Source: an uncultured Dehalococcoidia bacterium
GTDB lineage: Bacteria > Chloroflexota > Dehalococcoidia > Lucifugimonadales > UBA2962
Direction: 5' to 3'
Assembly: GCA_964637315.1 (NCBI GenBank)
Contig: CAZWTT010000003.1
Span: forward strand, 64,022-128,021
Length of the DNA: 64,000 nucleotides
The number at the start of each line of letters is the position of its first letter. Position 1 is the first letter of the stretch. The notes under the pieces are model-generated. The model ran no database searches. It was given only the letters and a program-made list of their open reading frames with translations, and was not told the origin of the DNA. Below, in pieces: positions 2,913-20,562 of the stretch. The position numbers were made by a program, and so were the translations under genes.

Positions 2913-3393
2913 GTGGTCGCGCCTCCCCTGCTCGACTTGTCTCCAGACTTCCCGTTGCACATCTGTATTGACGTCGATCCCGGTTTCAGGGTTGGACTGG
3001 TGGGAGCCCTCGACGATTTTGAGACTTGGCTCGGCGACCTTCCTACGAGGGCCTCGATTACCAGACAGATTGACGGGCGATTCGACCGGATCGTTTGGTT
3101 CACCGCATCGCGTCTCGATCTACAGGCGAACGCGGAGGAGTTCTCAGAGATGCTCTCGGAGACAGGCGGTCGGTTTGATCGCATGATCTGGTTCGCCACC
3201 TCCCGTGCCGACCTGCGGTCGGAGGAGGGGGGGGTGCGGAATATGGGTCGCTTGGCCGAGTGTGCCCTCCGTCCTTCAGACCGATCTGGACGAGAACGTC
3301 GTCAGAGAAGTCGGTCTCGCGGTGCGCATGGTCGAGTGCAAGATCGCCGCCATTGATCCTGACTGGTCAACGATACTGCTCGCGCACCGGTAG
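2913..3393 (+). pseudogene. DUF3052-like protein, disrupted by a frameshift at a G8 tract and carrying an internal 93-nt tandem duplication
   Basis: The 5' part is in frame 0 (track ORF 2913-3356). The family-like C-terminus IWVAWPSVPSVLQTDLDENVVREVGLAVRMVECKIAAIDPDWSTILLAHR* is in frame +1 (track ORF 3205-3393). Removing one G from the G8 run at 3227-3234 joins the two parts. GRFDRIVWFTASRLDL (from 3075) and GRFDRMIWFATSRADL (from 3168) are a direct duplication. The DUF3052 assignment is from memory of that family's consensus. Confidence 0.5.
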
Positions 3394-3431
3394 GGCAACT
3401 GAGAGTCGGGCCCTACGGCCCGGCGTCGCCG

Positions 3432-4292
3432 TCAGTAGGGGTACTCTGGCACCTCCGTAGCCCCCTCATCTTCCGCGGACTCGGATTCGTCGGGGTTGGA
3501 ATCGGCTTCGGCCTCGTGCTCTGGCTCGTCAACATACAACTCGGTCAGGTCGGCCGCCGCCGCCTCTTGCCGGCGGATGGCTTGTTCCTGTTCGGCGATC
3601 ATCCGGCGCATCTGCTCTCCCACCCAGCGTTTTATCTCGTCCAGTGACGGCGGCGAGATGTAGAACACCTGGATGTCAGTCGGGAACTGTACCTGATGGT
3701 CTTCGTTGACCACGAACAGGCCCGCCTCGTCCGCCCCTAGCGTTTTGTCGATCACGTCGGCTATGTGTGCGTACCGTGTTTTGGTGGCCCGATCGAGGGA
3801 CTCTCTCACCGTGTCGCGGACGGTATCACTGATTAATCCCACCCCACTGCAACGCTGCCAATCGACGGCCTCCTCAAGCGCTTGGCGATGGTCCGTGGCC
3901 TCGAGTTTGGCCGTTGAGCGACACAGTACGTTGATGAACGAATGACCGTGGACGTTGACCTGTTCGATCTCCTCCAAGCCCCCGTCGCCGCCATCGAATA
4001 CTGATTCGTGGTACACGTGGGTCACACTGGTCAGGGTCCTCTCCAGGTTCTCTACCTGGCCGCGGACGTCGGTCCAGTATCGTTCGACTCTCTCCCTGAA
4101 ATCGTCCGGTATGTCGGCCATGACGAAAAAGGTCGGTACCAGATAGAGCTTGCGCCCCTCCCGGAAGCCCTCGGCCTCCGGCCTGGTAATCTCGCCTAGT
4201 GGCTCTCCGCTCGCTTGCGGCTCGCTCGTCATGGCTTCTTTGCGCGAGCGCTCATCGCTTTGGGGATTCACAGCCTCGGTATTTGCCGTCAT
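3432..4292 (-). CDS. hypothetical acidic protein, translationally coupled to fdsA
   Basis: 286-aa ORF whose ATG overlaps the fdsA stop (ATGA at 4289-4292). Residues about 6-30 are encoded by repeat copy A. The conserved-looking core runs GRKLYLVPTFF...VQFPTDIQVFYISPPSLDEIKRW. The C-terminal tail is very acidic. I recognised no family. Confidence 0.6.
   Translation of the reverse strand: MTANTEAVNPQSDERSRKEAMTSEPQASGEPLGEITRPEAEGFREGRKLYLVPTFFVMADIPDDFRERVERYWTDVRGQVENLERTLTSVTHVYHESVFDGGDGGLEEIEQVNVHGHSFINVLCRSTAKLEATDHRQALEEAVDWQRCSGVGLISDTVRDTVRESLDRATKTRYAHIADVIDKTLGADEAGLFVVNEDHQVQFPTDIQVFYISPPSLDEIKRWVGEQMRRMIAEQEQAIRRQEAAAADLTELYVDEPEHEAEADSNPDESESAEDEGATEVPEYPY
4204..4275 (+). repeat. 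~70-nt dispersed repeat, copy A (core GGCTTCTTTGCGCGAGCGCTCATCGCTTTGGGGATTCAC)
   Basis: Aligns base-for-base with copies at 7058-7137, 7329-7395 and 20470-20540, and inverted at 6694-6740. It lies inside the 5' end of the 3432-4292 ORF. Confidence 0.8.
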
Positions 4293-7048
4293 GCAATGAC
4301 CTCTATGCGCACCGCGCAGACCTTGTACTCGGGGATCTTAGACACCGGGTCGAACGCCGGGTTGGTGAGAAAGTTCGCGGCTGACTCCTTCAGTTTCACG
4401 AACGGCACAAACACCTGCCCTGCATCCGTCTTCTGGTCGAAATACACCCTAGCCTCCAGCGTCCCGCGGCGCGACTTGAGCTCCACCCTGTCGCCCTCTG
4501 CGATCCCGTATCGCTTGCCGTCTTCCTCGTTCATCGACAGCGGTATCTCGCTTGCGCGAGCCAGCAGAGTCGGTACCCGCCGCGTGAGGGTCCCGCCGTG
4601 CCAGTGGTAGAGGATGCGGCCGGTATTGAGGATCAGTGGAAACCTCTTGGTCGGCAGTTCCTCGGCGGCAGGACCCTGATCATGGGCGACGAATCGAGCC
4701 CTGGGCCCCCGCGGGAAGTCGCTTTCGTACAGATAGCGGGTGCCGGGATGGTCCGGGGTCGGGCAGGGCCACTGGATGCCACCCTCGCGGTCGAGCCGCT
4801 CATAACTAATGCCTGCGACGATGGGGGTTAGGGACGCCATCTCGTTCCATATCTGCGAGGGCTCAGAGAAGGAGAAATGATTCCCTATTCCCGAATTGCG
4901 CTTTTCTGAGATCCGGCGCGCCACGTCGCAGACGATCTCCCAATCTGGGCGGCTGTTGCCCACCGGCTTGATGGCTTGGCGCACCCGCTGGACACGGCGC
5001 TCGCTGTTGGTGAAGGTGCCATCTTTTTCGGCGAAGGAACTGGCGGGCAGGACGACGTCTGCGATCTCCGCCGTCTCGTGCAGGAAAATGTCCTGCACGA
5101 CGAGGAATTCGAGGCTCTTGAACGACTGCTTGGCATGAGTGAGGTCGGGCTCGGACAGCAGCGGGTTTTCGCCGGTGATGTACATGGCCTTGATGCGGCC
5201 GTTGTCCATCGCCTCAACCATCTCAGTGATGACAAGGCCCTTTTCAACGGGAAGGGCGTTGTCGCCCCAGGCGCTTTCGAATTTGGCGAGCGCCTCCGAA
5301 GCGACGTTCTGATAACCGGGGAGGTTGTCGGGAATACAGCCCGCGTCTCCGCAGCCCTGCACGTTGTTTTGGCCCCGCAGTGGCGAGATGCCTGCCCCCG
5401 GCTTTCCCAATTGACCGGATACTAGAGCGAGGTTTATCAGCCCGTGAGCGTTAGCCGTGCCGTTGGTGTGTTGCGTGATGCCCATGCCCCAGATCAGACA
5501 GGAGCCGGAGAACGGCGGGCTGGCGTAGATGCGGGCCGCGGCTTGTATATCCTTCGCCGGGACACCTGTTATCTTCTCGGCCTGGGTCAGGTTGTAGCAC
5601 TCCACCACGCTGCGCCAGTTTTCGTAGCCGTCTGTGCGATTTTTGACGAACTCCTCGTCGGCCAAGCCCTCGTCCAGTATGACTTTCGCGATCGCATTCA
5701 GGAGGGCCACGTCCGTGCCAGGTCTGGGACGTATCCAGATATCGGCGTAGTCGCACATATCGATACGTCTGGGGTTGATGACGATCAGCTTGGCGCCACG
5801 CTCGACCACGGCCCGCCGCATACGAGCGGCGGCGACAGGATGGTTGGAGTCAGCATCCGACCCGACGATCACCAGGCAGCCGGCCTCGTCGTAGTCGATG
5901 TAAGAGTTGGAGGTAGCGCCACTACCCAGGGCCACGAGCATCGCTTCTAACGAAGGTGAGTGACATAGGCGCGTACAATGGTCGATGTTATTGGAACCCA
6001 TCACCAGTCGGGCGAACTTCTGCTGGATGTAGCCGTCCTCGTTCGTGGCCTTGGCAGAGCACAGGGTGACGAACTCGCCGCCGTCGTACCCGGAAAGCTT
6101 CTCGGCGATCAAATCCAGCGCCTCGTCCCAAGACGCTGGTTGCAGGCTTCCTTCCTTGCGGACGAGTGGCGTGGTGAGTCGATCCTTGTGATGCACGAAC
6201 GTGTACCCGAACCGTCCCTTGACGCAGAGCATGCCCAGGCTTGATCGATTGTCCGGGTCGTCGAGCATCTCGACGATGGTGTCGCTGCCATCGACACGAA
6301 CTTTAATGCCACAGCCCACGCCGCAGTAGGGACAGGTGCTGGCGACGGTCTTGGCGATGTTCGTGACCGCTTCTTTCGTGCGGATCGCGCCGGTGGGGCA
6401 AACCGAAAGGCACTGCCCACAGGTGGTGCATGATGAGTCCATCAGGGGCTGGTCCATGAATGTGCCGATGCGGCTGGTCGCGCTCCCGGTCCCGAGGAAG
6501 TCGATGGCGCCGATGAGTTGATGGCCATCCTGGCAGGCCTGGGTGCACCGGCCGCACAGGATGCAGTCCTGCATCGCGATGTCGAAGACTGGGTTGGATA
6601 CGTCGGTAGCCTCCCGTCGCCGACCTGTCCACCTTGTCGAGGCGATTCCGTGGTGCTCCGCGGCGATGGTCAGTTCGCGGTGGTCCTCCGTGCCGTCCGT
6701 CGATTGCGAAAGCGATGAGCGTTTATGAAAAGAGCCTTTCGGGCCCACCTCTTCGCTGGGCTCGACCATAGCGAGAGTCAGTTCGATGACGCCGGCGCGG
6801 ATGTGTCGGACCTCGGGGGTGTCGGTTCGTACCGTGAGCCCCTCGGCCGCCGGCACCGAACACGAAGCTGGGTAACCACGCATCCCGTCCACCTGCACCA
6901 GGCAGGTGCGGCAGGAGCCGATCGGCTTCATATCCGGATCCTTGCAGAGCTGGGAGACGTAGGTCTCGGAGGCGTTGACCGCGTCCAGCACCGACGCCCC
7001 GTCGCTGACGGTCACCTCGCGCCCGTCGACGGTTAGAGTGACGGTCAT
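4289..7048 (-). CDS. fdsA: NAD-dependent formate dehydrogenase alpha (catalytic molybdopterin) subunit, Cys-type
   Basis: 919 aa. It has an N-terminal plant-type 2Fe-2S pattern (C35, C46, C49, C63), two ferredoxin 4Fe-4S motifs (CILCGRCTQAC, CTTCGQCLSVCP), the Mo-domain cluster CPYCGVGCG...C, and the active-site stretch IDHCTRLCHSPS. Cys362 (codon 5963-5965, TGT) sits where selenocysteine sits in Sec-type enzymes. Confidence 0.93.
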   Translation of the reverse strand: MTVTLTVDGREVTVSDGASVLDAVNASETYVSQLCKDPDMKPIGSCRTCLVQVDGMRGYPASCSVPAAEGLTVRTDTPEVRHIRAGVIELTLAMVEPSEEVGPKGSFHKRSSLSQSTDGTEDHRELTIAAEHHGIASTRWTGRRREATDVSNPVFDIAMQDCILCGRCTQACQDGHQLIGAIDFLGTGSATSRIGTFMDQPLMDSSCTTCGQCLSVCPTGAIRTKEAVTNIAKTVASTCPYCGVGCGIKVRVDGSDTIVEMLDDPDNRSSLGMLCVKGRFGYTFVHHKDRLTTPLVRKEGSLQPASWDEALDLIAEKLSGYDGGEFVTLCSAKATNEDGYIQQKFARLVMGSNNIDHCTRLCHSPSLEAMLVALGSGATSNSYIDYDEAGCLVIVGSDADSNHPVAAARMRRAVVERGAKLIVINPRRIDMCDYADIWIRPRPGTDVALLNAIAKVILDEGLADEEFVKNRTDGYENWRSVVECYNLTQAEKITGVPAKDIQAAARIYASPPFSGSCLIWGMGITQHTNGTANAHGLINLALVSGQLGKPGAGISPLRGQNNVQGCGDAGCIPDNLPGYQNVASEALAKFESAWGDNALPVEKGLVITEMVEAMDNGRIKAMYITGENPLLSEPDLTHAKQSFKSLEFLVVQDIFLHETAEIADVVLPASSFAEKDGTFTNSERRVQRVRQAIKPVGNSRPDWEIVCDVARRISEKRNSGIGNHFSFSEPSQIWNEMASLTPIVAGISYERLDREGGIQWPCPTPDHPGTRYLYESDFPRGPRARFVAHDQGPAAEELPTKRFPLILNTGRILYHWHGGTLTRRVPTLLARASEIPLSMNEEDGKRYGIAEGDRVELKSRRGTLEARVYFDQKTDAGQVFVPFVKLKESAANFLTNPAFDPVSKIPEYKVCAVRIEVIA
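6694..6740 (-). repeat. ~70-nt dispersed repeat, copy E (inverted relative to A-D), inside fdsA
   Basis: The reverse complement reads GGCTCTTTTCATAAACGCTCATCGCTTTCGCAATCGACGGA. This matches the core of copies A-D. It encodes FdsA residues about 104-120 (KGSFHKRSSLSQSTDGT). Confidence 0.7.
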
Positions 7049-7326
7049 GGCCTAGCCTCTCTGCGGTCTTCGCGAGACTTCGCCTCGCTCATCACGGCTT
7101 CTTCGGGCAAGCGCTCATCGCTTTGGGAATCGACGGCAGATCGGGTGTGAGCCGAGTTTCCATCACCGTTTGGCCGCTTAGGCTGAGACCAGACGACACC
7201 CAGTGCGGCGCCGATGCCGACTCCAATTGCGACTCCAATAGCCACCGAGTCCAGCGCCGCACCTATCGCCACACCGATGCCTATACCAACGGCGATCCCG
7301 CCACCCATGCGGCCGTTGCTGCTCAA
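7045..7326 (-). CDS. small glycine-zipper membrane protein embedded in the FDH operon
   Basis: 93-aa ORF whose stop overlaps the fdsA ATG (ATGA at 7045-7048). The N-terminal half is GGGIAVGIGIGVAIGAALDSVAIGVAIGVGIGAALGVVW (GxxxG-rich TM). The C-terminal roughly 30 aa are encoded by repeat copy B. Confidence 0.5.
   Translation of the reverse strand: MSSNGRMGGGIAVGIGIGVAIGAALDSVAIGVAIGVGIGAALGVVWSQPKRPNGDGNSAHTRSAVDSQSDERLPEEAVMSEAKSREDRREARP
7058..7137 (+). repeat. ~70-nt dispersed repeat, copy B
   Basis: Core GGCTTCTTCGGGCAAGCGCTCATCGCTTTGGGAATCGACGGC. On the minus strand it is translated as AVDSQSDERLPEEAVMSEAKS. The same frame of copy A gives AVNPQSDERSRKEAMTSEPQ. Confidence 0.8.
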
Positions 7327-7328
7327 GT

Positions 7329-7395
7329 TCTCCGCTCACTCCGTTCGCTCGTCAAGACTTCTTCGCGCAAGCGCTCATCGCTTCGCAATCGACGG
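7329..7395 (+). repeat. ~70-nt dispersed repeat, copy C (intergenic, between fdsB and the small ORF)
   Basis: TCTCCGCTCACTCCGTTCGCTCGTCAAGACTTCTTCGCGCAAGCGCTCATCGCTTCGCAATCGACGG. This is the only copy not inside an ORF. It fills most of the 83-nt gap 7327-7409. Confidence 0.8.
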
Positions 7396-7409
7396 TACTA
7401 GGCGTCTGT

Positions 7410-8990
7410 TCAAGCGTGCAATATCCCGGGAAAGAAGTGCAGAAAACTGGTTATGGGGGCCCCTGCCGCCTGACCCAGACCGCAGAGGGAGGTCGACCCA
7501 ACTATGTCAGCTAGGTAGGTCAACTCATCGAGGTCGGCCTGCGAGCCGTTGCCCGACGCCAGCCGGTCGATGGCTTCCACTATGCGAGGCGTTCCCTCGC
7601 GGCACGGTGTGCATTTGCCGCAAGACTCGTCTGCGTTGTACGCGGCTAGCGCCCTCATCGCCTCGACGACGCCGACGGACTCGTCCAGTGCGACCAACCC
7701 ACCTGCGCCCAGCATTATGCCAGACTCGTGCAGCATGCCGGGCATGATCTCGATATCAAGGGAAGTCGGCGGCAGAAGCCCGCTCGACGGCCCGCCGACC
7801 CCCAGTGCCGTCAGCGTCCGGCCCTCTCGCAAGTCGCCACCGACGCCCTCCACAACCTCACGCAGAGGAGTTCCGAATGGCACCTCGATCAGGCCCGGTC
7901 GTTCGACCGCCCCGGAAAGGCTCAGCACCTTGGTGCCCGAGGCTCCCTCGACACCGATAGCGGCGAAGGCATCCGGGCCGTCATTGATGATGAACGGCAG
8001 GTTGGACAGGGTTTCAGCGTTGTTAACGATGGTCGGTCTACCTAGGTAACCCGACTCGGTAGGGAAGGGAGGGCGCAGCCGGGGTTCCCGGCGGTAACCC
8101 TCCATCGTGTCCAGAAGCGTGGTCTCCTCTCCGCACACGTAGCCGCCTGCGCCCCTGCGGATCTCCATTCGAACGGGCCAGCCTGATCCGAGTACGTCGG
8201 TGCCAACGAGGCCGAGCGCCATCGCATCGGCCAGCGATCGTTCCATTCGCGCCGCCGAAAAATCGGCCTCGGCGTTGATGTAGATAAAGATCGCCTCGGC
8301 GCCCGCGGCGTAGGCGGCAATGAGCGCCCCTTCGATCACCCGGTGAGGCAGGCCCTCCATGAGGTGGCGGTCCTTGAACAGGCCTGGCTCGCCCTCTTCC
8401 GAATTGACGATGAGGTACCGAGGCTCGGCGGCGGCCTTACGCGCACTCTCCCATTTGAGGGCGACCGGAAAATACGCTCCGCCGCGCCCCCTGAGGCCGG
8501 ACTCTTTCACCCGGGCGATCAAGGCCTCCGGGGACTCTGATAGGGCTGCAGCGAGGCCGGCGTAACCACCCCCGGTGAGGTACTCGTCGATGCCGTCGGC
8601 GTCGATTTCGCCGCAGCCGTTTAGAACCACCCGCGTTTGGCCCGACAGGAAAGTCGAGTCGTCTACGTAGCGTAGGGGCGCCGCTCCGCCCTCAAGCGTC
8701 GTGGAGATACGTATCGCAGTGTCGATGTCGACTCGGGGTAGCCGTACCGCAACCCCGCCCTGGTCCGTAACCACCACTGTCGGAGCGTCGAAACAGGCCC
8801 CGTCGCAACCGGCCACAACGAGGTGGGAATTGTCCAGTAGGTCCTCTCGGAACGCCTTTACGATATCCTCGGCTCCCACAGAGGCGGAGCAATGGCCAAC
8901 CTGGACAGCGACCCGTAATTTCTTGGCATGAGCCGACAGACGAACTTCAGCGGTGCTACGGAGCCGCTCGAATGCCGTCCGCGCCGTCAC
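7410..8990 (-). CDS. fdsB: formate dehydrogenase beta subunit (NuoF-like NAD/FMN/4Fe-4S flavoprotein)
   Basis: 526 aa with GLRGRGGAYFPVALKWE (FMN/NADH site) and ESCGKCTPCREG (the N3-type 4Fe-4S motif). There is an N-terminal thioredoxin-like extension. The gene overlaps fdsG by 4 nt. Confidence 0.9.
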   Translation of the reverse strand: MTARTAFERLRSTAEVRLSAHAKKLRVAVQVGHCSASVGAEDIVKAFREDLLDNSHLVVAGCDGACFDAPTVVVTDQGGVAVRLPRVDIDTAIRISTTLEGGAAPLRYVDDSTFLSGQTRVVLNGCGEIDADGIDEYLTGGGYAGLAAALSESPEALIARVKESGLRGRGGAYFPVALKWESARKAAAEPRYLIVNSEEGEPGLFKDRHLMEGLPHRVIEGALIAAYAAGAEAIFIYINAEADFSAARMERSLADAMALGLVGTDVLGSGWPVRMEIRRGAGGYVCGEETTLLDTMEGYRREPRLRPPFPTESGYLGRPTIVNNAETLSNLPFIINDGPDAFAAIGVEGASGTKVLSLSGAVERPGLIEVPFGTPLREVVEGVGGDLREGRTLTALGVGGPSSGLLPPTSLDIEIMPGMLHESGIMLGAGGLVALDESVGVVEAMRALAAYNADESCGKCTPCREGTPRIVEAIDRLASGNGSQADLDELTYLADIVGSTSLCGLGQAAGAPITSFLHFFPGILHA

Positions 8991-9481
8991 GATGTCGCTC
9001 CGGTCGATAGCCGTTCGATGATCGCCGTCGTCCTCTCAAGGGTGGTGCGGCCGTGCCAGCGCCCGTCTATCTGCACCGCCGGGGCGACCCCGCAGAGGAA
9101 GCCGCAGGCGGTTCGCTCCAGCGTCACCGTTGTGTCGCTTGTATTCGCCGTTTCTCCCGTATCAACGCTGAGTAGGGCCTTGATTGCGTCCAAGACGCCA
9201 TCGCCACCGACCATACGACAGGAAAGACCTGTACAAACACGGACAACGTGCTCGCCCGGCCTTTCGACTCGTAATTCTGGGTAGCTGGTCACCGCCCCGT
9301 AGACCTCGCTGGTCGGGATACCCAGGTGCCAGGAAACGACCTCCATGCCCCAGTCGGGCAGGTGGCCGAACTCGTGTTGCAAATGATGGAGTGCGGGAAG
9401 AAGCTGTCCGTGCTCGCGTGGGAACCTCTCGCGCAGGTCTGCACGCAACTGGTTTCGAGACGATTTCGATAAGTCGTTCAC
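8987..9481 (-). CDS. fdsG: formate dehydrogenase gamma subunit (NuoE-like 2Fe-2S protein)
   Basis: 164 aa with VCTGLSCRMVGG and ACGFLCGVAPAVQIDG (the NuoE 2Fe-2S cysteine pairs). Confidence 0.88.
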   Translation of the reverse strand: MNDLSKSSRNQLRADLRERFPREHGQLLPALHHLQHEFGHLPDWGMEVVSWHLGIPTSEVYGAVTSYPELRVERPGEHVVRVCTGLSCRMVGGDGVLDAIKALLSVDTGETANTSDTTVTLERTACGFLCGVAPAVQIDGRWHGRTTLERTTAIIERLSTGATS

Positions 9482-9496
9482 TGTTATCCGATCACA

Positions 9497-9880
9497 CTAC
9501 CCACGGGCGACGATTGCTTTGTTAAGGGCCACGGTCACCCTGCTGATCCAATCCTCATCATCGGATGTTAGGGCCGCCGTTTCTCCGGCCTCCGTCGTGA
9601 GGACGACTTCGTACTGGACTGAAAGGCTCCGGTACCAAAAGATTCCGAGTCCGCCGACAATCGCTCCGGCCACAATGGTGGGGATGTCGCCTCCGTTTAG
9701 ACCGCCGAACAGGATGATTGCCCCTGCAGCGACCATGACGGTCGGCCACACTCGGTTCGCCTCCCTCTTGCGGTTGGAAACCGATGTGATCCCGTTGATC
9801 ACGTAGGTCTGAGAACGTACTACGAACCGGGTTCGAGTCACCGTTACAACCTCGTCCTGATAGATGGGTTCGTCTTCCAT
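9497..9880 (-). CDS. small two-TM membrane protein (possibly DUF6232-like)
   Basis: 127 aa. An N-terminal beta-like segment (VVTVTRTRFVVRSQTYVINGITSV) is followed by two Gly-rich TM helices and then a soluble tail. It lies between the AOR gene and fdsG with gaps of 9 and 15 nt. The family name is from memory only. Confidence 0.55.
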   Translation of the reverse strand: MEDEPIYQDEVVTVTRTRFVVRSQTYVINGITSVSNRKREANRVWPTVMVAAGAIILFGGLNGGDIPTIVAGAIVGGLGIFWYRSLSVQYEVVLTTEAGETAALTSDDEDWISRVTVALNKAIVARG

Positions 9881-9889
9881 CTTGCCGCT

Positions 9890-11776
9890 TTAAGCACCGG
9901 CCGCAACGGTCGATAACCGGCCTAGACCTAGGCTGACCAGCTTGGATGTGGGTATGGTGCCGTCGGGGTTCCAGCCGCGAGCCTCGTAATAGGAGTCGAT
10001 CATCAGCTTCAGGTCGTCTTCGGGCAGACCGACACCCACTCCGGGCCCATCGGGCAGATCGTCGGTCAGGATTCGCTGGGGCAGTGCATCTTCGGAGCGC
10101 TGCCAGCCCTCGCGGATGTTGAATAGCTTCTTGAGGTTGTTGATACGCTCGCCGGCGAGGCGCAACTCGTCGGGCGTGACGTTCCAGCCGGTGACGTGGG
10201 ACAGGACGATGGCGGACTCGGCGTAGAAGTCGTCGAACACCTTGCGCAGGAACTTGCACCACGCCAGCGAGTCAATCACGGCCGAGTAATCCTCGCCTTC
10301 GGCCGTGATTTCGCCCCTCTCCCAGTCGACGGCCAGTCTGTCCACCCGGTCGGAAAAATCGGCCTCATAGGCCGAGGAACGGTTGTGGCAGGCACCGCGT
10401 GTGCTGACGGCCAGCGCCAGCGCCATCGTCTTGAGGGACCGGGGCTCGTAGCCGGGCATCTCCAAGCCCTTGACGTGCATTGCCCAGGCCTCTGAGCCCT
10501 GGCCGACGCGCTCGGCTGCCCGGCGGCTGCCCTCCGCCAGCAGGTCGCCGAGGCCTCGCCTATGGGCGATGGCTTCCAGCGCCTTGAGGACGGTCTCGCC
10601 ATTGCCAAACCGTGGTGTAGATTCACCATCGAATAACCCTTTTGAAGCGCTTTCGGCGCACCAGGCGAGGGTGGCGCCGGCGCTGATCGTGTCCATGCCC
10701 AACTCGTCGCACATCACGGACGCCCGGAGCACCGCGTTGGGATCGGACACGCCGAGCAACGAGCCCAGCGCGAAGGCCGACTCGTACTCCATGCGTCCGG
10801 TCGCACGATTGCCGCTATCACCGGTTGTCATAACGTGCTCGCAACCGATCGTGCAGTTCACACAGTGGGCGTTCTTCACCCGGTGATGGGAATGGAACCG
10901 CTCGCCTCCGATGGCCGCGGCACCTTCGAAGGTCGAACTCTGGAAATTGCGAGTCGGCAGGCTTCCCAGGCGGCTGAAGACCTCGACGTTGGCCATTGTG
11001 CCCAGTGTTCGGTATTTCTCCGTCGCCGGTCCCAGGCTACGATGGCTCAGTTCCCGCCCGAGGCGGTTGAGGGCTTCCGGGTTGGCAACGGGCACCGGTG
11101 CGGCGCCGCGAACGGCGATGGCTTTAATGCCCTTGGACCCCATGACTGCGCCGACGCCGGTGCGACCGGCCTGCCTCCCGCCGTCGCTCCGGATGCTGGC
11201 GAAGCGGACAAGCGACTCTCCCGCCGGGCCGATGCATGCGACCCTGAATCGGCGGTCCAATCGTGCTTTGACGGCTTCCTCGGTCGCCGATGTGGATTTC
11301 CCGGACAGGTCGGCGGCGTCCAGCAACTCGACTTCGCCGTCTTCGATCTTGAGCAGGGTCGGACGGTCGCGAGCGCCTTTGATTACCAGAGCATCGAAGC
11401 CGCAGCGCTTTAGTTCGGTCGCCATGAAACTGGACGAGAGCGAGTCGCCGATGAAGCCTGTCAGGGGCGACTTGGCGACCACCGCGAACTTGCTTGATGT
11501 CGTCAGACGACTTCCAACCAGGGGACTGGTGACGAAGATGAGCGGGTTCCTGGGCCCGAGGGGATCGGCTCTCGACGGACAATGGCGGTAGAGCAGCCAG
11601 GCCCCCAGTCCGGTGCCGCCGATGAATGCGCGCAGGACCGCTTCGGGGATGGGCTCGAAACCCGCCTCGCCGGTGTCCAGGTCCACTACTAGGGCACGCC
11701 CTAGGTAGCCGAACAAGGGTCTGTCGGCGTTTGCGGAAGTCCCTTTCAGCGCAGCGGAACCGGTCGATACGGTCAT
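9890..11776 (-). CDS. aldehyde:ferredoxin oxidoreductase family (tungsto/molybdopterin) enzyme
   Basis: 628 aa with the AOR N-terminal signature GYLGRALVVDLDTGE...GGTGLGAWLL and the 4Fe-4S/pterin region KNAHCVNCTIGCEH. It overlaps the upstream moaD-like gene by 4 nt. Confidence 0.9.
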   Translation of the reverse strand: MTVSTGSAALKGTSANADRPLFGYLGRALVVDLDTGEAGFEPIPEAVLRAFIGGTGLGAWLLYRHCPSRADPLGPRNPLIFVTSPLVGSRLTTSSKFAVVAKSPLTGFIGDSLSSSFMATELKRCGFDALVIKGARDRPTLLKIEDGEVELLDAADLSGKSTSATEEAVKARLDRRFRVACIGPAGESLVRFASIRSDGGRQAGRTGVGAVMGSKGIKAIAVRGAAPVPVANPEALNRLGRELSHRSLGPATEKYRTLGTMANVEVFSRLGSLPTRNFQSSTFEGAAAIGGERFHSHHRVKNAHCVNCTIGCEHVMTTGDSGNRATGRMEYESAFALGSLLGVSDPNAVLRASVMCDELGMDTISAGATLAWCAESASKGLFDGESTPRFGNGETVLKALEAIAHRRGLGDLLAEGSRRAAERVGQGSEAWAMHVKGLEMPGYEPRSLKTMALALAVSTRGACHNRSSAYEADFSDRVDRLAVDWERGEITAEGEDYSAVIDSLAWCKFLRKVFDDFYAESAIVLSHVTGWNVTPDELRLAGERINNLKKLFNIREGWQRSEDALPQRILTDDLPDGPGVGVGLPEDDLKLMIDSYYEARGWNPDGTIPTSKLVSLGLGRLSTVAAGA

Positions 11777-12102
11777 CCGCCCGCCTGGCTGGAGAAGAGC
11801 AGCATCCGGTCGCCCGTTGTTATCCGTCTTCCCGAGTCGGACATGAACGAGGTTCCGTTCAGGTTGAGGATGTAGCTTGTCATCAAGCTCCCCTCAGGAT
11901 CCACGACTTCGCCGACCAGTTCGGGTACCTCTCTTGCCAGTCGCCCGGCCACGTCGGTCGCCGATACGTTTGTGGGAAGCTCCAGATGGACAGTGCTGCG
12001 CCCGGCCAACAGCCTGGCGTTGCCAAACAGTTCAACCACGGCGGAGACATTCGTCTTCCCAAGGTCTGAACCAGCCGAGTTTTGTGTGTTGAATAGCTTC
12101 AT
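11773..12102 (-). CDS. MoaD/ThiS-like ubiquitin-fold sulfur-carrier protein
   Basis: 109 aa ending in ...LLFSSQAGG (C-terminal Gly-Gly). It is sandwiched, with overlaps, between mobA and the AOR gene. Confidence 0.7.
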   Translation of the reverse strand: MKLFNTQNSAGSDLGKTNVSAVVELFGNARLLAGRSTVHLELPTNVSATDVAGRLAREVPELVGEVVDPEGSLMTSYILNLNGTSFMSDSGRRITTGDRMLLFSSQAGG

Positions 12103-12773
12103 GCGAGCGATTCGGAAGCGATCTCTGCGGCCCTAGCCCTCGCAAATTCCAAGTTTCTCTGCGTGTTTACGTTGAAGAAACTCCAGCGACCCGGGTCTAT
12201 CTCTTCCACCGTCTTCTGTGGGACATACTTTACCGCGACCGACCCGAAGAAGCCGGTAATTTTTAGGCGACCGGCGCGAATACTCTCTTCCATCGGCGCC
12301 AAGCACTTCTTTGAGTAGAGGGCGTGAGTGGGCTCGGGCCAGCCGTCCAGCACCGGTATGACGATATCAAATCCCGTCCTTGCGTTCGCCATGTGAGAGA
12401 GTAGCGGTTTGCTGAGGAAGGGCATGTCGCAGGCGACGACCACGACCCAATTTGAGTGTGCCTCGGTGAGGCCTGTGAAAATGCCGCCCAGCGCTCCCGA
12501 GTCCGGGAATAAGTCCTGAACGGTCCGTCCCCTGTCGGGTACGGGGAGGGTGTTCGCCTGGGCCTCGTCGGCGACCACCACCACCAAATCGGAAGTGACA
12601 GATTCCAGAACGGAAATCGCGAGGGAGACCAGCGGGACGCTGCCAACCAGTTCGAGCGCCTTGTTCCGGCCCAGCCTCGTGCTCCGGCCGCCGGCCAGCA
12701 CCACACCGGTGATGGGCGAGACGTCCACGGAGACCTTCCCCTCGGTGCCACCGCGCTCCGCTGCCATCGTCAA
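12099..12773 (-). CDS. mobA: molybdenum cofactor guanylyltransferase
   Basis: 224 aa. The N-terminal motif GVVLAGGRSTRLGRNKAL is typical of MobA. Confidence 0.85.
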   Translation of the reverse strand: MTMAAERGGTEGKVSVDVSPITGVVLAGGRSTRLGRNKALELVGSVPLVSLAISVLESVTSDLVVVVADEAQANTLPVPDRGRTVQDLFPDSGALGGIFTGLTEAHSNWVVVVACDMPFLSKPLLSHMANARTGFDIVIPVLDGWPEPTHALYSKKCLAPMEESIRAGRLKITGFFGSVAVKYVPQKTVEEIDPGRWSFFNVNTQRNLEFARARAAEIASESLA

Positions 12774-12804
12774 AGACTAACACGGTGAGGTGGTGGGGTG
12801 AGTC

Positions 12805-14877
12805 TTAGTCTTGCTTGCGGCGTGTCAGTGGTTTCGCCGGTAGCTGGTCGACGACCTCGCCTGTCTCAGTCGTGTCGTAGCCGCCCAGACTTTCTACTCT
12901 CGCTTTAAAATCTGGCGAACGGATCGCCTGTAGCACGGCGGCAACTGAATCCGTTTCAATCTCGTTCGCTGAGATGACCAGGTCATATCGCTCTTTCAAC
13001 AAGGGCACGAAGTCGAGACCGAACGCTCGCGCGGACGACTGGATGCCTAGGCTGACGTTGGCTCGGCCGGCGCTCACCGCCGCGGCGACCGCCAGGTGCG
13101 TGTACTCCTCATGGCCGTAGCCGCTGACGCTATCCGGCTCGATCCCGAGACGCGAGAGTTCGTGGTCGAGCAGGAGCCGTGTGCCCGAGCCCCGTTGCCG
13201 GTTGACGAACGTAGCAGAAGTCTCAGCAAGATCTTCGAAGGAGGTCACTCCGAGAGGATTTCCCTGTGTGACGATCAGGCCCTGAATCCGGTGGACTAGC
13301 GTCGTGACGACCACCGGCTTGGAAATGTGGCGGTCTACGTACGACAGGTTGTATTCGCCGGTCTCAGGATCGAGTAGATGAGTGCCGGCGATGTGTGCCT
13401 CACCGCGCTCGATGGCGACGAGCCCGCCCAGCGAGCCGACGCTTGCCGACGCAAGTCTGGGGCCTCCCCGTTCATCCAGCAGGTTCGCCAGCACGTCCAG
13501 GGTCATGTCGTGGCTGCCGGTTACGACCACTGTGCGATCTATCACGACCAGCGGCCGCAACAGGTCAATGCGCAGGGTGGAGCCGGCCTCGACTCCCTCC
13601 GAGAATCGAGGCAGCAGCGTGATTCCATCGGCCTCGACCAGCGACATGATCACTCCCGCGCCCCGGCGTATCGGAGTCGCTATCAACCTGCCGTCCACTC
13701 GGCCGAGCCTTACCCGGAGAAACTCGTCCTCCCCGGCTGGCGAGACGATCTTGCGGGTCGCGACCGCCTCGACCGTTTCGCCCTCAGAGCGTGAGCGCAG
13801 GACCTCCATCCCGGCAGTCGGAGTCCCCACGGTCCTTGTCACGGATGTTCCAAGGCAATCGTCAATGACTCGTCTTAAAAATAGTTCGGAAGTTACCAGG
13901 GCCGATACTGGGTAGCCCGGTATCCCTAGGACCGGCGTTTTTCCAACCACACCGAGTACCACCGGATGGCCGGGACGGACCGCGACGCCATGTACGGCCA
14001 GCTCGCCCAGCGCCTCCACGGCGCGGGCTGTGAAGTCCTCCGAACCGGCCGACGAGCCGGCGTTGATAACGACCACGTCGTGCGATCCGGCTGCCTGGCG
14101 GATGGCCGCCTCCACCAGTGCAAGGTCATCACGGACCGGGTCCAGGCGAACCGGCGCGCCGCCCCACTCGGCCACCTGGGCGGCGAGCATGATCGAGTTG
14201 TACTCGACGACCTGTCCCGGCGCAGCAGCAGTTCCCGGCTCCACCAGCTCGGTGCCGGTAGGTATGATCGCCACCGTTGGCTGCTTCCTGACCGAAACCT
14301 CCGCGACCCCGGCTGCGGCGCACGCTCCCAGGTCCTGCGGCCTCAGCCGGTGGCCGCCCGGCAGCACCAATTCGGTTGCCGCGATGTCCTCGCCGATCGG
14401 TCTTACGTGCTGGTAGGGAGCAGCGGGTGCGCGAATTCTCACGTGGTCCTGTTCGGGGCCGTCCACGTGCTCGATCATCACGACCGCGTCGAATCCTTCC
14501 GGCATCGGATCGCCGGTGTCCAGCCAGATCGCCGTTTTTCCAGGCGCTAGGCTGACGGGAGCAGTTTCAGTCGCTCCGGCGGTCTCGGCGGAGCGCACCG
14601 CGATCCCATCCATCGCGGCCGCGTCGTAGTGAGGGGACGACCTAAGGGCCCACACCGGCCCCGCCGTCACTCGGCCTGTGGCTTCGGCTAGTGGGATGGG
14701 CTCTGCCGCGGTCAGCAGCCCGACGCCGGCACGGTCGAGGGCGTCATCGAACCGACTCCCGGCCTCGTTCAGGGGCAGGTCCCGGAGGTAGTAGCGGCGA
14801 TGGCCCTTCTCCCCGTCTGTCGTGTCGGACCGGGCGTCCATATCAGAAAAGTGTGACCGGCACCGGTTCTCCCGCAT
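12805..14877 (-). CDS. moeA: MoeA-type molybdopterin molybdo/tungstotransferase fused to a C-terminal periplasmic-binding-protein-like (oxyanion-binding-like) domain
   Basis: 690 aa with MoeA motifs (SPHYDAAAMDGIAVRS, VVINAGSSAGSEDF, GVAVRPGHP). It has a C-terminal extension of about 250 aa (VVVTGSHDMTLDVLANLL...FVNRQRGSGTRLLLD) with a PBP type-2 look. Confidence 0.8.
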   Translation of the reverse strand: MRENRCRSHFSDMDARSDTTDGEKGHRRYYLRDLPLNEAGSRFDDALDRAGVGLLTAAEPIPLAEATGRVTAGPVWALRSSPHYDAAAMDGIAVRSAETAGATETAPVSLAPGKTAIWLDTGDPMPEGFDAVVMIEHVDGPEQDHVRIRAPAAPYQHVRPIGEDIAATELVLPGGHRLRPQDLGACAAAGVAEVSVRKQPTVAIIPTGTELVEPGTAAAPGQVVEYNSIMLAAQVAEWGGAPVRLDPVRDDLALVEAAIRQAAGSHDVVVINAGSSAGSEDFTARAVEALGELAVHGVAVRPGHPVVLGVVGKTPVLGIPGYPVSALVTSELFLRRVIDDCLGTSVTRTVGTPTAGMEVLRSRSEGETVEAVATRKIVSPAGEDEFLRVRLGRVDGRLIATPIRRGAGVIMSLVEADGITLLPRFSEGVEAGSTLRIDLLRPLVVIDRTVVVTGSHDMTLDVLANLLDERGGPRLASASVGSLGGLVAIERGEAHIAGTHLLDPETGEYNLSYVDRHISKPVVVTTLVHRIQGLIVTQGNPLGVTSFEDLAETSATFVNRQRGSGTRLLLDHELSRLGIEPDSVSGYGHEEYTHLAVAAAVSAGRANVSLGIQSSARAFGLDFVPLLKERYDLVISANEIETDSVAAVLQAIRSPDFKARVESLGGYDTTETGEVVDQLPAKPLTRRKQD

Positions 14878-16057
14878 ACAGGCCGCCGGAATCCAGTGGG
14901 ACGGATGCGATACCGTCGGCTCTCACTAGCGTGAAGATGAGGTTCGACTTTCCGAAAACGGGTTCGGCCACCGTGCCCCCGGTACCGGCCTTCAATCTGA
15001 CGGGAAAGAAGTCCTGGCGGCCGGAAACGGATGGAACGTCCCTCGTCAACGTCGCGGTCACGGTCGGTCTGATATCCGCAGAGCCCGAGCCAATCAGGGA
15101 GTGGATGACCGGCCGCACTAGCAGGTCGAAGACCACCATCGCCGACACCGGGTTGCCCGGCAGGCCGAAGACCGGCGTCCGCCCCGCGAGCCCGGCGATA
15201 GTGGGCTTGCCCGGTTTGATCGATATGCCGTGCACCAGTACACCAGGCTCGCCTAGCTCTGACAGCACAGCGGCCGTCATGTCCCGGCTGCCCACCGAGC
15301 TGCCGGCCGAGAAGACCACGACATCGCCCTTTCCCATCGCCTCGATTGCGGCTTTGCGCTGGCCGTCTAGGTCGTCGGGGAATAGTCCTATCGGTATTGG
15401 AGCGCCACCGGCCAGATCGACCAGGGCCGACACCGTGTGAGTATTGATGTCCCTCACTTGGCCGGGTGCCGGGGTCTCGCCGGGAGATACCACTTCGTCG
15501 CCGGTGGACACGATGGTCACCCGCGGTCGCTTCGCCACCTCTAACTCGGTCAGTCCGAGCGCGAGCAGCGCCCCGATGTCCTGAGGCCTCAGAGTGTGAC
15601 CGTTGGGAACGACCTCCTGACCCGGCGACACGTCCTCGTTTGGCTGGACGACGTTCTCTCCCGGCGCGACCGGCCGGGTCACTTCCAAGGTGCCGTCGTC
15701 TATCAGCTGGGTGTGCTCGACCATGACGACAGCGTCCGCGCCCTCTGCCAGCATGCCTCCGGTAAAGGCAGTCGCCGCTTGACCGGGCGCCAGCGTGACA
15801 TCGGGCGCTCGGCCCATCGGCACCTCGCCGGTGACTTCCAGATACGCCGGCAGTCCATCAGTTGCGCCGAACGTGTTCGCCGCCCGCACCGAATACCCGT
15901 CCATCGACGAGCGGGCAAAGGCGGGCAGGCCGGTAGGGGCTAGGGAACGGACAGCGGTGACCCGGCCGACGGCATCGACGGTGGAGACCGTCTCGGCGCC
16001 GACCCGAACATCCCCGATCCGCTCCAAGAGCAGCGCGAGCGCCTGGTCGGGCGGCAA
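14843..16057 (-). CDS. moeA: MoeA-type molybdopterin molybdenumtransferase (second paralog)
   Basis: 404 aa with PAFARSSMDGYSVRA, VVFSAGSSVGSRDM and GISIKPGKP. It has a TTG start. The frame is open back to the fhs stop, but no ATG or GTG lies upstream. It overlaps the downstream moeA fusion gene by 35 nt. Confidence 0.88.
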   Translation of the reverse strand: MPPDQALALLLERIGDVRVGAETVSTVDAVGRVTAVRSLAPTGLPAFARSSMDGYSVRAANTFGATDGLPAYLEVTGEVPMGRAPDVTLAPGQAATAFTGGMLAEGADAVVMVEHTQLIDDGTLEVTRPVAPGENVVQPNEDVSPGQEVVPNGHTLRPQDIGALLALGLTELEVAKRPRVTIVSTGDEVVSPGETPAPGQVRDINTHTVSALVDLAGGAPIPIGLFPDDLDGQRKAAIEAMGKGDVVVFSAGSSVGSRDMTAAVLSELGEPGVLVHGISIKPGKPTIAGLAGRTPVFGLPGNPVSAMVVFDLLVRPVIHSLIGSGSADIRPTVTATLTRDVPSVSGRQDFFPVRLKAGTGGTVAEPVFGKSNLIFTLVRADGIASVPLDSGGLYAGEPVPVTLF

Positions 16058-16102
16058 GAGGTTGAAGAGTTCGGCCAGCGTAGACTTCTTGAGCGGCCCT
16101 GG

Positions 16103-17725
16103 TTACAGGCCGATAATCCGGCCTTCGGCGTCCACGTCCAAGGAGCGTGGTTTTCCAGGCAACCCGGGCATCGTCACGATGTTGCCCGCGATCGGGTAGA
16201 TGAACCCGGCGCCAACCGAAGCTCGCACATCGCTCACCCGGAAGGTGTAATCGGAGGGACGGCCCTTTCTCCTAGCCTCGTGGCTGATCGAGAGGTGGGT
16301 CTTGGCCATGCATATGGGCAAGTCGCCCCAGCCAAGTGCCTCGAATCGACGTAGCCGCTTGCGAGCCGCTGGGGCCCAGGCCACGTCGCTGGCGTTGTAC
16401 ACACGGCGGGCTAGGCCGAGCACCTTATCTTCCAGGGAGTCGGTCAGCGGGTAGGCGTAGTTGATCGCCGGCACACCGTCCTTCGTTGCACTGATGAGGA
16501 CCTCCGCGAGGTCGGTGCACCCGGCGCCCCCTTCGGTGACCGGGTTGCTTTCTACCGCCGCTGTCGCACCGGCGTCTTCGCTGCCACTCTTGGCGATCAG
16601 CAGTTCACCAGGGGTGTCGGTGGGGAACCGATTGAGCGCCACCACCACCGGCAGTCCGAACGAGCGGATCACCCCGATCAGGTGCCGCAGGTTGGCCATA
16701 CCCGTCTCCACGGCCGCCTCGTTTGGAGACTCCAGATCGCGCATCTTCATACCGCCGTGGTACTTGAGCGCCTTGACCGTCGCAACGATCACCGCTCCAT
16801 GAGGTTGCATGCCGGATGAGCGAGCCTTGATGTGCATGAACTTTTCGAATCCCAGGTCGGCGCCGAACCCGGCCTCTGTAAGCACATAGTCGGCATATCC
16901 CAGAGCGAGCCGGTCGCCGATCACCGAGCTGCAGCCGTGTGCGATGTTGCCGAACGGCCCGGCGTGCACGATCACCGGTTGACCCTCGGTAGTCTGCACC
17001 AGGTTTGGCAGGATGGCGTGCCGCAGAAGCGACATCATAGAGCCCACGGCACCGACGTCTTCGGCGGTAATGGGGATGTCGTCGTCGGCAAACCCGACAA
17101 CCATTCTACCCAGCCTCGCCCGCAAGTCTTCCAGATCCGAGCTTAGAGCCAGTATCGCCATCACCTCCGAGGCTGTGACGATGTCGAAGCCGGTCTCCCT
17201 CACCGGTGCGTTGTTCGCACCACCCAAACCGGTCGCGACCTGCCGAAGCGATCGCTCCTCCATGTCGGAGACTCGTCGCAAAGTGACGCCAGCCGAAGTC
17301 AAACCGGGAATCTGGCCTCGCTGCACCGCGTTGTCGGTGAGAGCGGCCAGCAGGTTGTGTGCCGAGCCGACGGCGTGGGCGTCGCCGGTGAAGTGGACAT
17401 TCACCTCGTCTTCGGGAATTACCAGCGACTTGCCGCCGCCGGTACCGCCCCCCTTGATTCCGAATATGGGGCCCAGGGAGGGCTCTCGTAGTGTGGCGAC
17501 GGCATTGACCCCCAATCTACCGAGACCTTGAGTCAGGCCGACGGCAACGGTGGTCTTTCCCTCGCCTGCTGGGGTCGGCGTGATGCCGGTGACGATGATC
17601 AGCTTCCCATGGCCGGTTCCGTTGTTGATGGCCTCCAGAGGCACCTTGGCCTTGTTGTGGCCATAGGGGATGAGAGAGCCTGGGTCGAGTCCCAACTTCT
17701 TGGCGATGTCAGTGATTGGTCTCAC
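16103..17725 (-). CDS. fhs: formate--tetrahydrofolate ligase
   Basis: 540 aa with ITPTPAGEGKTTVAVGL (P-loop) and family-wide collinearity. It has a GTG start with AAAGGAG 11 nt upstream. Confidence 0.95.
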   Translation of the reverse strand: MRPITDIAKKLGLDPGSLIPYGHNKAKVPLEAINNGTGHGKLIIVTGITPTPAGEGKTTVAVGLTQGLGRLGVNAVATLREPSLGPIFGIKGGGTGGGKSLVIPEDEVNVHFTGDAHAVGSAHNLLAALTDNAVQRGQIPGLTSAGVTLRRVSDMEERSLRQVATGLGGANNAPVRETGFDIVTASEVMAILALSSDLEDLRARLGRMVVGFADDDIPITAEDVGAVGSMMSLLRHAILPNLVQTTEGQPVIVHAGPFGNIAHGCSSVIGDRLALGYADYVLTEAGFGADLGFEKFMHIKARSSGMQPHGAVIVATVKALKYHGGMKMRDLESPNEAAVETGMANLRHLIGVIRSFGLPVVVALNRFPTDTPGELLIAKSGSEDAGATAAVESNPVTEGGAGCTDLAEVLISATKDGVPAINYAYPLTDSLEDKVLGLARRVYNASDVAWAPAARKRLRRFEALGWGDLPICMAKTHLSISHEARRKGRPSDYTFRVSDVRASVGAGFIYPIAGNIVTMPGLPGKPRSLDVDAEGRIIGL

Positions 17726-17782
17726 GCTTGGAGTTACTCCTTTACGCGGTGCCGTCCACCTTCGCAGGTGAATCGCGGCCCG

Positions 17783-17791
17783 ATCTTAGCA
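17783..17791 (-). promoter_or_regulatory. candidate extended -10 (TGCTAAGAT) for the fhs-led operon
   Basis: The minus strand reads ...CATGTGCTAAGATCGGG about 55 nt upstream of the fhs GTG. No good -35 is present. Confidence 0.25.
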
Positions 17792-17810
17792 CATGGGCAC
17801 CGATGGAATT

Positions 17811-17826
17811 TTGACCCGCGCGTCAA
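17811..17826. promoter_or_regulatory. 16-bp palindrome TTGACCCGCGCGTCAA in the divergent fhs / enolase-fusion intergenic region
   Basis: Perfect 5-bp arms TTGAC/GTCAA around a GC-rich 6-mer. It sits about 25 nt upstream of the candidate fhs -10 on the minus strand. Confidence 0.3.
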
Positions 17827-18040
17827 GACCATGTCACCTCACTACCTCACCGATTTGTTTACGTACGCCTTTGCTGAAGACGCAACTGATGGTATTTAGC
17901 GATTGACGTGGCACAATCGGTGGTGTCCAATATCCTCCCCGGAAACTTTGGGAGACACTTCGGGGAACGCTGTGGGCTAGGCTTCTTAAGGAGGCGCTCA
18001 AATCCGGCTGGACAAGGGCTGGGTCATCGCCAACCACATT

Positions 18041-20536: not shown

Positions 20537-20540
20537 ACGG
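20470..20540 (+). repeat. ~70-nt dispersed repeat, copy D (3' end of the enolase-fusion ORF)
   Basis: TTCTCCACGAGGTGCAGCCTCGCTCGTCAGGTCTTCTTCGGCCGAGGCCTCATCGCTTCGGCAATAGACGG. It encodes the last about 22 aa. It also supplies the stop codon: CAATAGACGG here versus CAATCGACGG in copies B, C and E. Confidence 0.7.
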
Positions 20541-20562
20541 TTCACTTTTGCAGCCCGTCCAC

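Follow-up and report, generated by a model that had tools for sequence, protein, structure and literature searches.

Does an iron-sulfur cluster that is missing from the alpha subunit of a formate dehydrogenase (FDH) reveal a damaged enzyme, or is it a cluster that the enzyme never needed? The question is raised by fdsA, a gene on the reverse strand of a 64,000-nucleotide stretch of contig CAZWTT010000003.1 from an uncultured Dehalococcoidia bacterium (this whole stretch is called the window, and coordinates refer to it). The initial annotation of this DNA reported that FdsA lacks the H-x3-C-x2-C-x5-C (His/Cys3) motif that ligates a [4Fe-4S] cluster and that a repeat-derived segment stands in its place. 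It presented the absence as an anomaly and left two explanations, either that the lineage transfers electrons without the cluster or that the alpha subunit is functionally altered. According to our in silico analysis, FdsA is, with a probability of roughly 85%, the functional alpha subunit of a formate dehydrogenase that is NAD-linked, is related to NuoEFG and belongs to a normally cluster-less clade of the type of MeFDH1, the tungsten FDH1 of Methylorubrum extorquens AM1. The parts of the enzyme are the following:

4289..7048 (-): fdsA, alpha subunit of the NuoEFG-related, NAD-linked formate dehydrogenase type, 919 aa, intact open reading frame (ORF)
6818..7048 (-): [2Fe-2S] domain at the N terminus (aa 1-77), with ligands C35, C46, C49 and C63 (PF13510, E 6e-20)
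6683..6766 (-): hypervariable loop without Cys (aa 95-122), where NuoG and FdsA of the Rhodobacter capsulatus type have the His/Cys3 [4Fe-4S] ligands
6686..6733 (-): insert of 16 codons, in frame (aa 106-121, SFHKRSSLSQSTDGTE), which derives from a dispersed repeat's 5' half and is antisense to fdsA
6398..6565 (-): two ferredoxin-type [4Fe-4S] sites, C162/165/168/172 and C207/210/213/217 (Pfam Fer4 families)
6224..6334 (-): Mo/W-domain [4Fe-4S] site, C239, C242, C246 and C275 (PF04879, E 1e-14)
5960..5965 (-): active-site Cys362-His363, within RLCHS (residues 360-364), aligned to RLCH of MeFDH1
7410..8990 (-): fdsB-like, NuoF-type subunit for flavin mononucleotide (FMN), NADH and a [4Fe-4S] cluster, 526 aa (PF01512, PF10589, PF10531; TIGR01959 at E 8e-126, below cut-off)
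8987..9481 (-): fdsG-like, NuoE-type [2Fe-2S] subunit, 164 aa (PF01257, E 1e-31; NF004638, FDH gamma, at E 5e-33, below cut-off)

FdsA matches the Fdh-alpha family TIGR01591 of NCBIfam with 756 bits against a cut-off of 666, and Pfam assigns it Fer2_4, Fer4 dicluster, Molybdop_Fe4S4, Molybdopterin and Molydop_binding. The catalytic domain for bis-molybdopterin guanine dinucleotide (bis-MGD) is present (TIGR01591 above cut-off, PF00384 and PF01568). Genes for a NuoF-like and a NuoE-like subunit lie upstream of fdsA on the same strand, with a 4-nt overlap. Pfam finds no PF10588 (NADH-G_4Fe-4S_3) domain in FdsA, the H-x3-C-x2-C-x5-C motif is absent, and the protein is free of cysteine from residue 63 to residue 162; the region first singled out, window 6674-6772, encodes aa 93-125. 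On recount, the cysteine positions given in the initial annotation (35, 46, 49 and 63, the gap to 162, and C362) were all correct. Its statements that the motif is missing and that the downstream clusters and the active-site Cys362 are intact were also confirmed: the ligands are present, and the 16 remaining cluster-ligand cysteines (16/16) are invariant in 51 aligned sequences. The columns of C362, H363 and the conserved Arg, R558 within PLRGQNN, are nearly invariant and can be aligned to MeFDH1. Compared with the orthologue in a sister genome (G004), the ratio of nonsynonymous to synonymous substitution rates (dN/dS) is 0.108 for the whole gene over 913 codons, and fdsA is under purifying selection.

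The absence of the motif extends far beyond this gene. An ortholog search in 31 genomes, the window's own (G000) and 30 relatives, yielded 11 full-length FdsA orthologues, 67-84% identical and spread over several families within the order. None of the 12 aligned sequences across the order (the query and the 11 orthologues) carries the His/Cys3 motif, and a single stray Cys is found at the site in three orthologues (L003, L004 and L006). Residues 1-240 of the query, searched against a collection of 5.8 billion proteins, matched 1067 proteins at E <= 0.001. PF10588 is listed for none of the best 120 of these 1067, and the motif occurs in 0 of 121 close homologues, that is, the query and the same best 120. 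The segment is without any Cys in 112 of the 121 and has one Cys in 1; for the remaining 8, the anchor regular expression ran on into the next ferredoxin motif, which is the source of the only Cys printed. The few close homologues that bear names are SAR202 and Chloroflexi metagenome-assembled genomes. A NuoG/FdhA-like paralogue in the same genome (contig C1, 115365-117965), 36% identical to FdsA, has kept the motif as HPHGCLTCHRIELC; it also has an extra Cys-rich insert downstream of it.

A wider survey was made with HMMER on representatives clustered at 50% identity, the best 150 being taken and motifs scored by regular expression. The N-terminal [2Fe-2S] motif was present in 102 of these best 150. 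H-x3-C-x2-C-x4-6-C is carried by 67 of the 102, while 22 have 0-2 Cys at the cluster site; the rest are 6 with variant spacing, 6 GltD-type fusions and 1 without a ferredoxin domain. The framing of the missing motif as an anomaly is not supported, the motif being absent from orthologues (12/12) and close homologues (121/121) alike. The comparison with close relatives that the initial annotation had proposed also showed that the repeat insert, described below, is present in one sister species and absent in another. In the literature on formate dehydrogenase in SAR202 and Chloroflexi, of which parts were consulted, no work on this cluster turned up, cluster-less Chloroflexota FdsA not having been searched for specifically.

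Among solved structures, the best match to FdsA by sequence is the alpha subunit of MeFDH1 (PDB 7vw6, 7e5z, 7xqw and 8j83), with 680 bits over residues 2-915; FdsA proteins of the Rhodobacter capsulatus type score 607-622 bits. Foldseek returned the alpha subunits of the Rhodobacter aestuarii enzyme (RaFDH), of MeFDH1 and of the R. capsulatus enzyme (RcFDH) as top matches for a model of FdsA residues 1-300, with template modelling (TM) scores of about 0.8. MeFDH1 has the domain order of FdsA here and, like it, is without the His/Cys3 cluster, the aligned segment being Cys-free. It differs in an N-terminal extension of about 67 aa and in its loop, which is unrelated in sequence and has no repeat insert. 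The parts of PMC10869683 consulted describe three [4Fe-4S] clusters and one [2Fe-2S] cluster in MeFDH1 alpha and a complete relay from W-bisMGD to FMN. They give the lack of the dimer-interface cluster as the main difference between MeFDH1 and RcFDH; the authors of that study infer this cluster to be unnecessary.

RcFDH (FdsABGD; PDB 6tg9 and 6tga), with which RaFDH (9ktl) was grouped as a comparison system, shares the overall architecture and has separate FdsG, FdsB and FdsA genes. Where its FdsA has HPLDCLTC...C, binding the dimer-interface cluster A4, FdsA here has a loop that is predicted to be disordered; the ligands H117, C121, C124 and C130 and PF10588, which characterise the RcFDH type, are all missing. 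Section 8 of PMC7171172, the part consulted, gives the direct chain from bis-MGD to FMN as clusters A1, A2, A3, A5 and B6, and places the cluster of His117/Cys121/Cys124/Cys130 at the dimer interface, off the bis-MGD-to-FMN path. Cluster numbering differs between papers, the His/Cys3 cluster being A4 in the RcFDH paper and A5 in the 2024 MeFDH1 paper. The FdsD family PF11390 was not matched in G000, but the control search also gave 0 of 14 reference genomes, so this result is uninformative. In NuoG/Nqo3 of complex I, cluster N5 (PF10588) occupies the homologous position, after the [2Fe-2S] domain and between the same two helices; that domain is absent here. N5 lies on the main electron chain of complex I. 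The geometry of FDH differs, its N5-homologous cluster being off the path.

Loss of the cluster is tolerated, we infer, because it lies to the side, at the interface between the two FdsA subunits of the dimer, and forms no link of the main chain. Electrons would run from Mo/W-bisMGD to the Mo-domain [4Fe-4S] cluster, through the two ferredoxin-type [4Fe-4S] clusters to the [2Fe-2S] cluster, and on to the [4Fe-4S] cluster of FdsB and to FMN. The enzyme would be active and would probably not dimerise in the manner of RcFDH. Of the two explanations first offered, electron transfer without the cluster is supported by MeFDH1 and by the off-path position of the cluster in RcFDH, while functional alteration of the alpha subunit is not, since the homologues and active MeFDH1 are cluster-less as well. 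The initial annotation itself had named functional FDH homologues naturally without the motif as what would refute its view, and active MeFDH1 is such a homologue. The absence of the cluster is a normal trait of the MeFDH1-type lineage and is explained by known biology: the cluster is off the path and is absent from an active enzyme.

The relationship to MeFDH1 was examined in a FastTree phylogeny, which was restricted to full-length sequences of 840-1010 aa that have both anchor motifs. Of its 88 rows, 57 have the cluster, 28 are cluster-less and 3 are partial. The query's own clade comprises 10 rows and has support 100; it is nested in a 15-row clade (Shimodaira-Hasegawa-like support 97), in which 14 rows are cluster-less and one is partial, protein P0138 included. 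P0138 scores 973 bits to MeFDH1 (7vw6_A) against 613 to RcFdsA, and it is through this protein that the query groups with MeFDH1. The grouping is indirect because the MeFDH1 sequence itself is outside the tree; four short MeFDH1 motifs matched none of the stored proteins, and searches of the PDB with P0138 and P0134 were used instead. As P0138, a member of the query's 15-row clade, is closest to MeFDH1, the loss is most simply shared with the MeFDH1 lineage. Judged from these sequences, loss by shared descent is likely rather than proven; the His/Cys3 [4Fe-4S] cluster, which is homologous to N5 of complex I, would have disappeared long ago from the clade containing MeFDH1.

Several observations weigh against this assignment. 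The position of MeFDH1 is inferred through P0138, and the quick FastTree phylogeny, whose deep branches are weak, requires at least 5-6 switches between the states with and without the cluster. According to the consulted parts of PMC10869683, the single beta subunit of MeFDH1 resembles the FdsB-FdsG heterodimer of RcFDH, whereas fdsG and fdsB are separate genes here; NuoE-like and NuoF-like parts are thus divided between two ORFs and not joined in one subunit. Lastly, FdhD/FdsC (PF02634) was found in 0 of six genomes of the genus (G000, G001, G002, G004, G006 and G007), all of which have an fdsA ortholog. Completeness is 88% for G000 and 93-97% for the other five, and the control search was positive in 8 of 14 reference genomes. 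FdhD/FdsC is an accessory gene and not a defining part of the enzyme.

What occupies the place of the cluster is a loop. In an AlphaFold2 model of residues 1-300 (mean predicted local distance difference test score, pLDDT, of 87), residues 101-120 have a pLDDT of 45-52 and are flanked by helices 78-95 and 124-132; the loop is accordingly predicted to be disordered. The flanks RxGVxELTxAM and [HY]RELxxAAxxH, conserved in the 12 aligned sequences, enclose a stretch of variable length and sequence. In the 121 homologues, the spacer that separates the [2Fe-2S] cysteines from the ferredoxin-type ones (last to first) is 78 to 118 residues long, and the differences arise mostly between ELTxAM and [HY]REL. 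The dN/dS of the loop against the G004 orthologue is 0.66 over 23 alignable codons. The site of the lost cluster would remain as a surface loop between two helices, free in length and sequence.

The loop also contains the insert, which belongs to a repeat family whose members are about 80 nt long. BLAST gave 62 matches to this multi-copy dispersed family across the 1.76 Mb of the assembly; a shorter query gave 42. Within the insert, window 6697-6724 is an inverted match to 7109-7136 and 7369-7395. Besides this fragment, the window holds these copies:

4201..4275 (-): full repeat copy just 3' of the fdsA stop codon (nhmmer E 7.6e-17)
7065..7140 (-): full repeat copy immediately upstream of fdsA, where it overlaps the 3' end of a small ORF (E 3.5e-20, profile positions 3-78)
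7325..7398 (-): full repeat copy just downstream of fdsB (nhmmer E 6.4e-18)
20468-20544: repeat copy

An nhmmer profile built from the 62 genomic matches was run on the window and 12 loci (about 132 kb). Inside fdsA it matched 6695-6733 (+), corresponding to aa 106-118, with E 5.7e-6 and 23.1 bits over profile positions 5-43 of 82. This similarity is beyond chance, and the claim that part of the segment derives from the repeat stands. The closest complete relative (locus L002 of G004) has a repeat match at the orthologous site (E 8e-4), and in a three-way DNA alignment with the consensus, L001 and L002 each retain different consensus bases of the repeat. The orthologue in G005 (locus L013) has the short loop VPEPKGDISHREL and no intragenic repeat match, and a full repeat copy lies just upstream of its fdsA; the window carries exactly 48 nt more than L013, namely the codons of SFHKRSSLSQSTDGTE. 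The 48 nt keep the reading frame, in a host gene whose dN/dS is 0.108. The family was detected in 4 of 16 genomes searched (G000, G003, G004 and G005), all of one genus, with 24-42 matches in each of the three sister genomes.

An alternative is that the likeness of aa 106-118 to the repeat arose by chance or convergence, the loop being merely a fast-evolving linker of low complexity. The match is short (39 nt, half of the profile, 23 bits), and other members of the genus have loops of similar length without similarity to the repeat. However, an E value of 5.7e-6 in about 132 kb is joined by the independent match at the orthologous site of L002, the two loci retain different bases of the consensus, the insert coincides exactly with the 48 nt missing from the G005 orthologue, and the family is confined to four of the 16 genomes. 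We therefore consider chance similarity improbable and retain the origin of the insert from the repeat.

The branching of G000, G004 and G005 is a polytomy (411 loop-free columns), so that a single gain in the ancestor of G000 and G004 and an earlier gain with loss in G005 are both possible. The insert is recent and secondary, and the Cys-free loop is ancient. The initial annotation was right that part of the segment is repeat-derived, but its title gave the repeat too large a role: only 16 of the roughly 28 loop residues come from it, and it did not replace the motif, the loop having been Cys-free long before the insertion. The 48-nt fragment lies in the loop, in frame and antisense to fdsA, both here and in one or more sister species; it is tolerated there and would be translated as part of the protein. 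By analogy, it resembles known intragenic insertions of transposable elements of the miniature inverted-repeat type (MITEs) and Rickettsia palindromic elements, which, in the parts of PMC10969869 consulted, are likewise short dispersed repeats in frame in an enzyme gene at a site compatible with the fold. In contrast to the Rickettsia elements, only a 48-nt half copy is involved here. Their hosts are obligate intracellular bacteria, whereas the host here appears, by its named homologues, to be of a Chloroflexota lineage.

As to the repeat itself, it contains the conserved strings AAGCGATGAG and CTGACGAGCGAGG and a small internal hairpin, of which two compensatory forms occur: GCGCTTGCGC and GGCCTTGGCC (pair counts CG 30 / GC 23 and GC 28 / CG 25). 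RNAalifold on the 62 matches gave only a 3-bp hairpin and did not recover a second hairpin seen by eye. CUGAnGAG strings, also seen by eye, had suggested a hammerhead-like RNA, for which there was no Rfam match. Scanned with Rfam up to E 1, window 3000-21000 gave 0 matches, so the repeat is not a known RNA family.

A second alternative sees in the alpha subunit a damaged or decaying protein, in which electron transfer has been impaired by the missing cluster together with the inserted repeat, and in fdsA a gene that is turning into a pseudogene. A mobile-looking repeat does lie within the coding region, three further copies flank genes of the operon, and FdhD was not found in the genome. Against this, the ORF is intact over its 919 aa, the whole-gene dN/dS is 0.108, the other cluster ligands do not vary, and the active-site Cys-His is nearly invariant. 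The Cys-free state is common to all 121 homologues and to active MeFDH1, and the insert is in frame and retained in two species. Decay is thus very improbable, and a working, cluster-less FdsA remains the reading that we adopt. That the cluster is still there, with ligands from elsewhere in FdsA or in trans from a small neighbouring protein, can hardly be upheld: several His lie in the loop and its flanks (H108, H123, H132 and H133) and a conserved small ORF is found between fdsB and fdsA, but 112 of 121 homologues have no Cys at 63-162, 1 has a single Cys and 8 only that of the ferredoxin motif, the small ORF is Cys-free, the loop is predicted to be disordered, and the MeFDH1 structures, as far as described in the parts consulted, have only three [4Fe-4S] clusters in alpha.

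Two further ORFs adjoin fdsA, and a group of genes lies upstream of fdsG:

7045-7326 (-): small ORF between fdsB and fdsA, its stop codon overlapping the fdsA start
3432-4292 (-): ORF after fdsA, 286 aa, conserved part about 3432-4202
9497-9880 (-): DUF6232 gene, upstream of fdsG
9890-11776 (-): aldehyde:ferredoxin oxidoreductase (AFOR) gene
12099-12773 (-): MobA-like gene
12805-14877 (-): MoeA fused to a PBP-like domain
14843-16057 (-): second MoeA

The N-terminal half of the small ORF product is hydrophobic and glycine-zipper-like (GIAVGIGIGVAIGAAL...). Its first 50 or so residues are conserved in five other loci of the genus (L003-L007) and not in L002; a copy of the dispersed repeat encodes the C-terminal third. 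The Pfam matches of the product are all below threshold, and it contains no Cys. Repeat copies overlap the predicted ends of this ORF and the start of the downstream ORF.

The downstream ORF keeps its position in 11 of 11 orthologous loci, with 42-68% identity from about residue 31. It belongs to no Pfam or NCBIfam family at default thresholds, with one match of 0.19 at lenient thresholds, and in the ESM Atlas it falls only into unnamed clusters, mostly of Chloroflexota. Its AlphaFold2 model (pLDDT 81) matches the structures of ChaN (2g5g; Z 9.2, Foldseek E 6e-3), HopBA1 (Z 8.2) and an erythromycin-esterase-like protein (Z 7.0), and further those of EreC and two succinoglycan-biosynthesis proteins. 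The model suggests an EreA/ChaN-like fold; Z scores of this size allow no more than a shared fold to be claimed. The protein has an acidic tail and ends in EYPY. It is possibly an accessory or maturation factor of the FDH.

The genes at window 9497-16057 form an island of Mo/W cofactor and enzyme genes. The upstream MoeA, MobA-like and AFOR genes are consistent with an expressed Mo or W enzyme cluster, and the AFOR gene together with the kinship to the tungsten enzyme MeFDH1 gives, by analogy, a hint of tungsten use.

One might join these threads into a single picture, in which the loop would be a permissive landing site for a young, subclade-restricted repeat that is translated in an active enzyme, and the FDH would be matured without FdhD, maybe through a ChaN/EreA-like partner. 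As a whole we regard it as tentative and rather doubtful. That FdhD was not found in the genus and that a conserved, uncharacterised gene comes after fdsA are observations perhaps more worth pursuing than the absence of the cluster. The insert is a small, clean case of a surface loop taking up mobile DNA in frame. For the family, our results support the published view that the cluster is dispensable for the relay from Mo/W to FMN and is tied to the RcFDH-type dimer. The cluster-less state is common to a large Chloroflexota/SAR202-related family, to many other lineages and to active MeFDH1, and in annotation FdsA-type genes without the NADH-G_4Fe-4S_3 domain should not be called defective.

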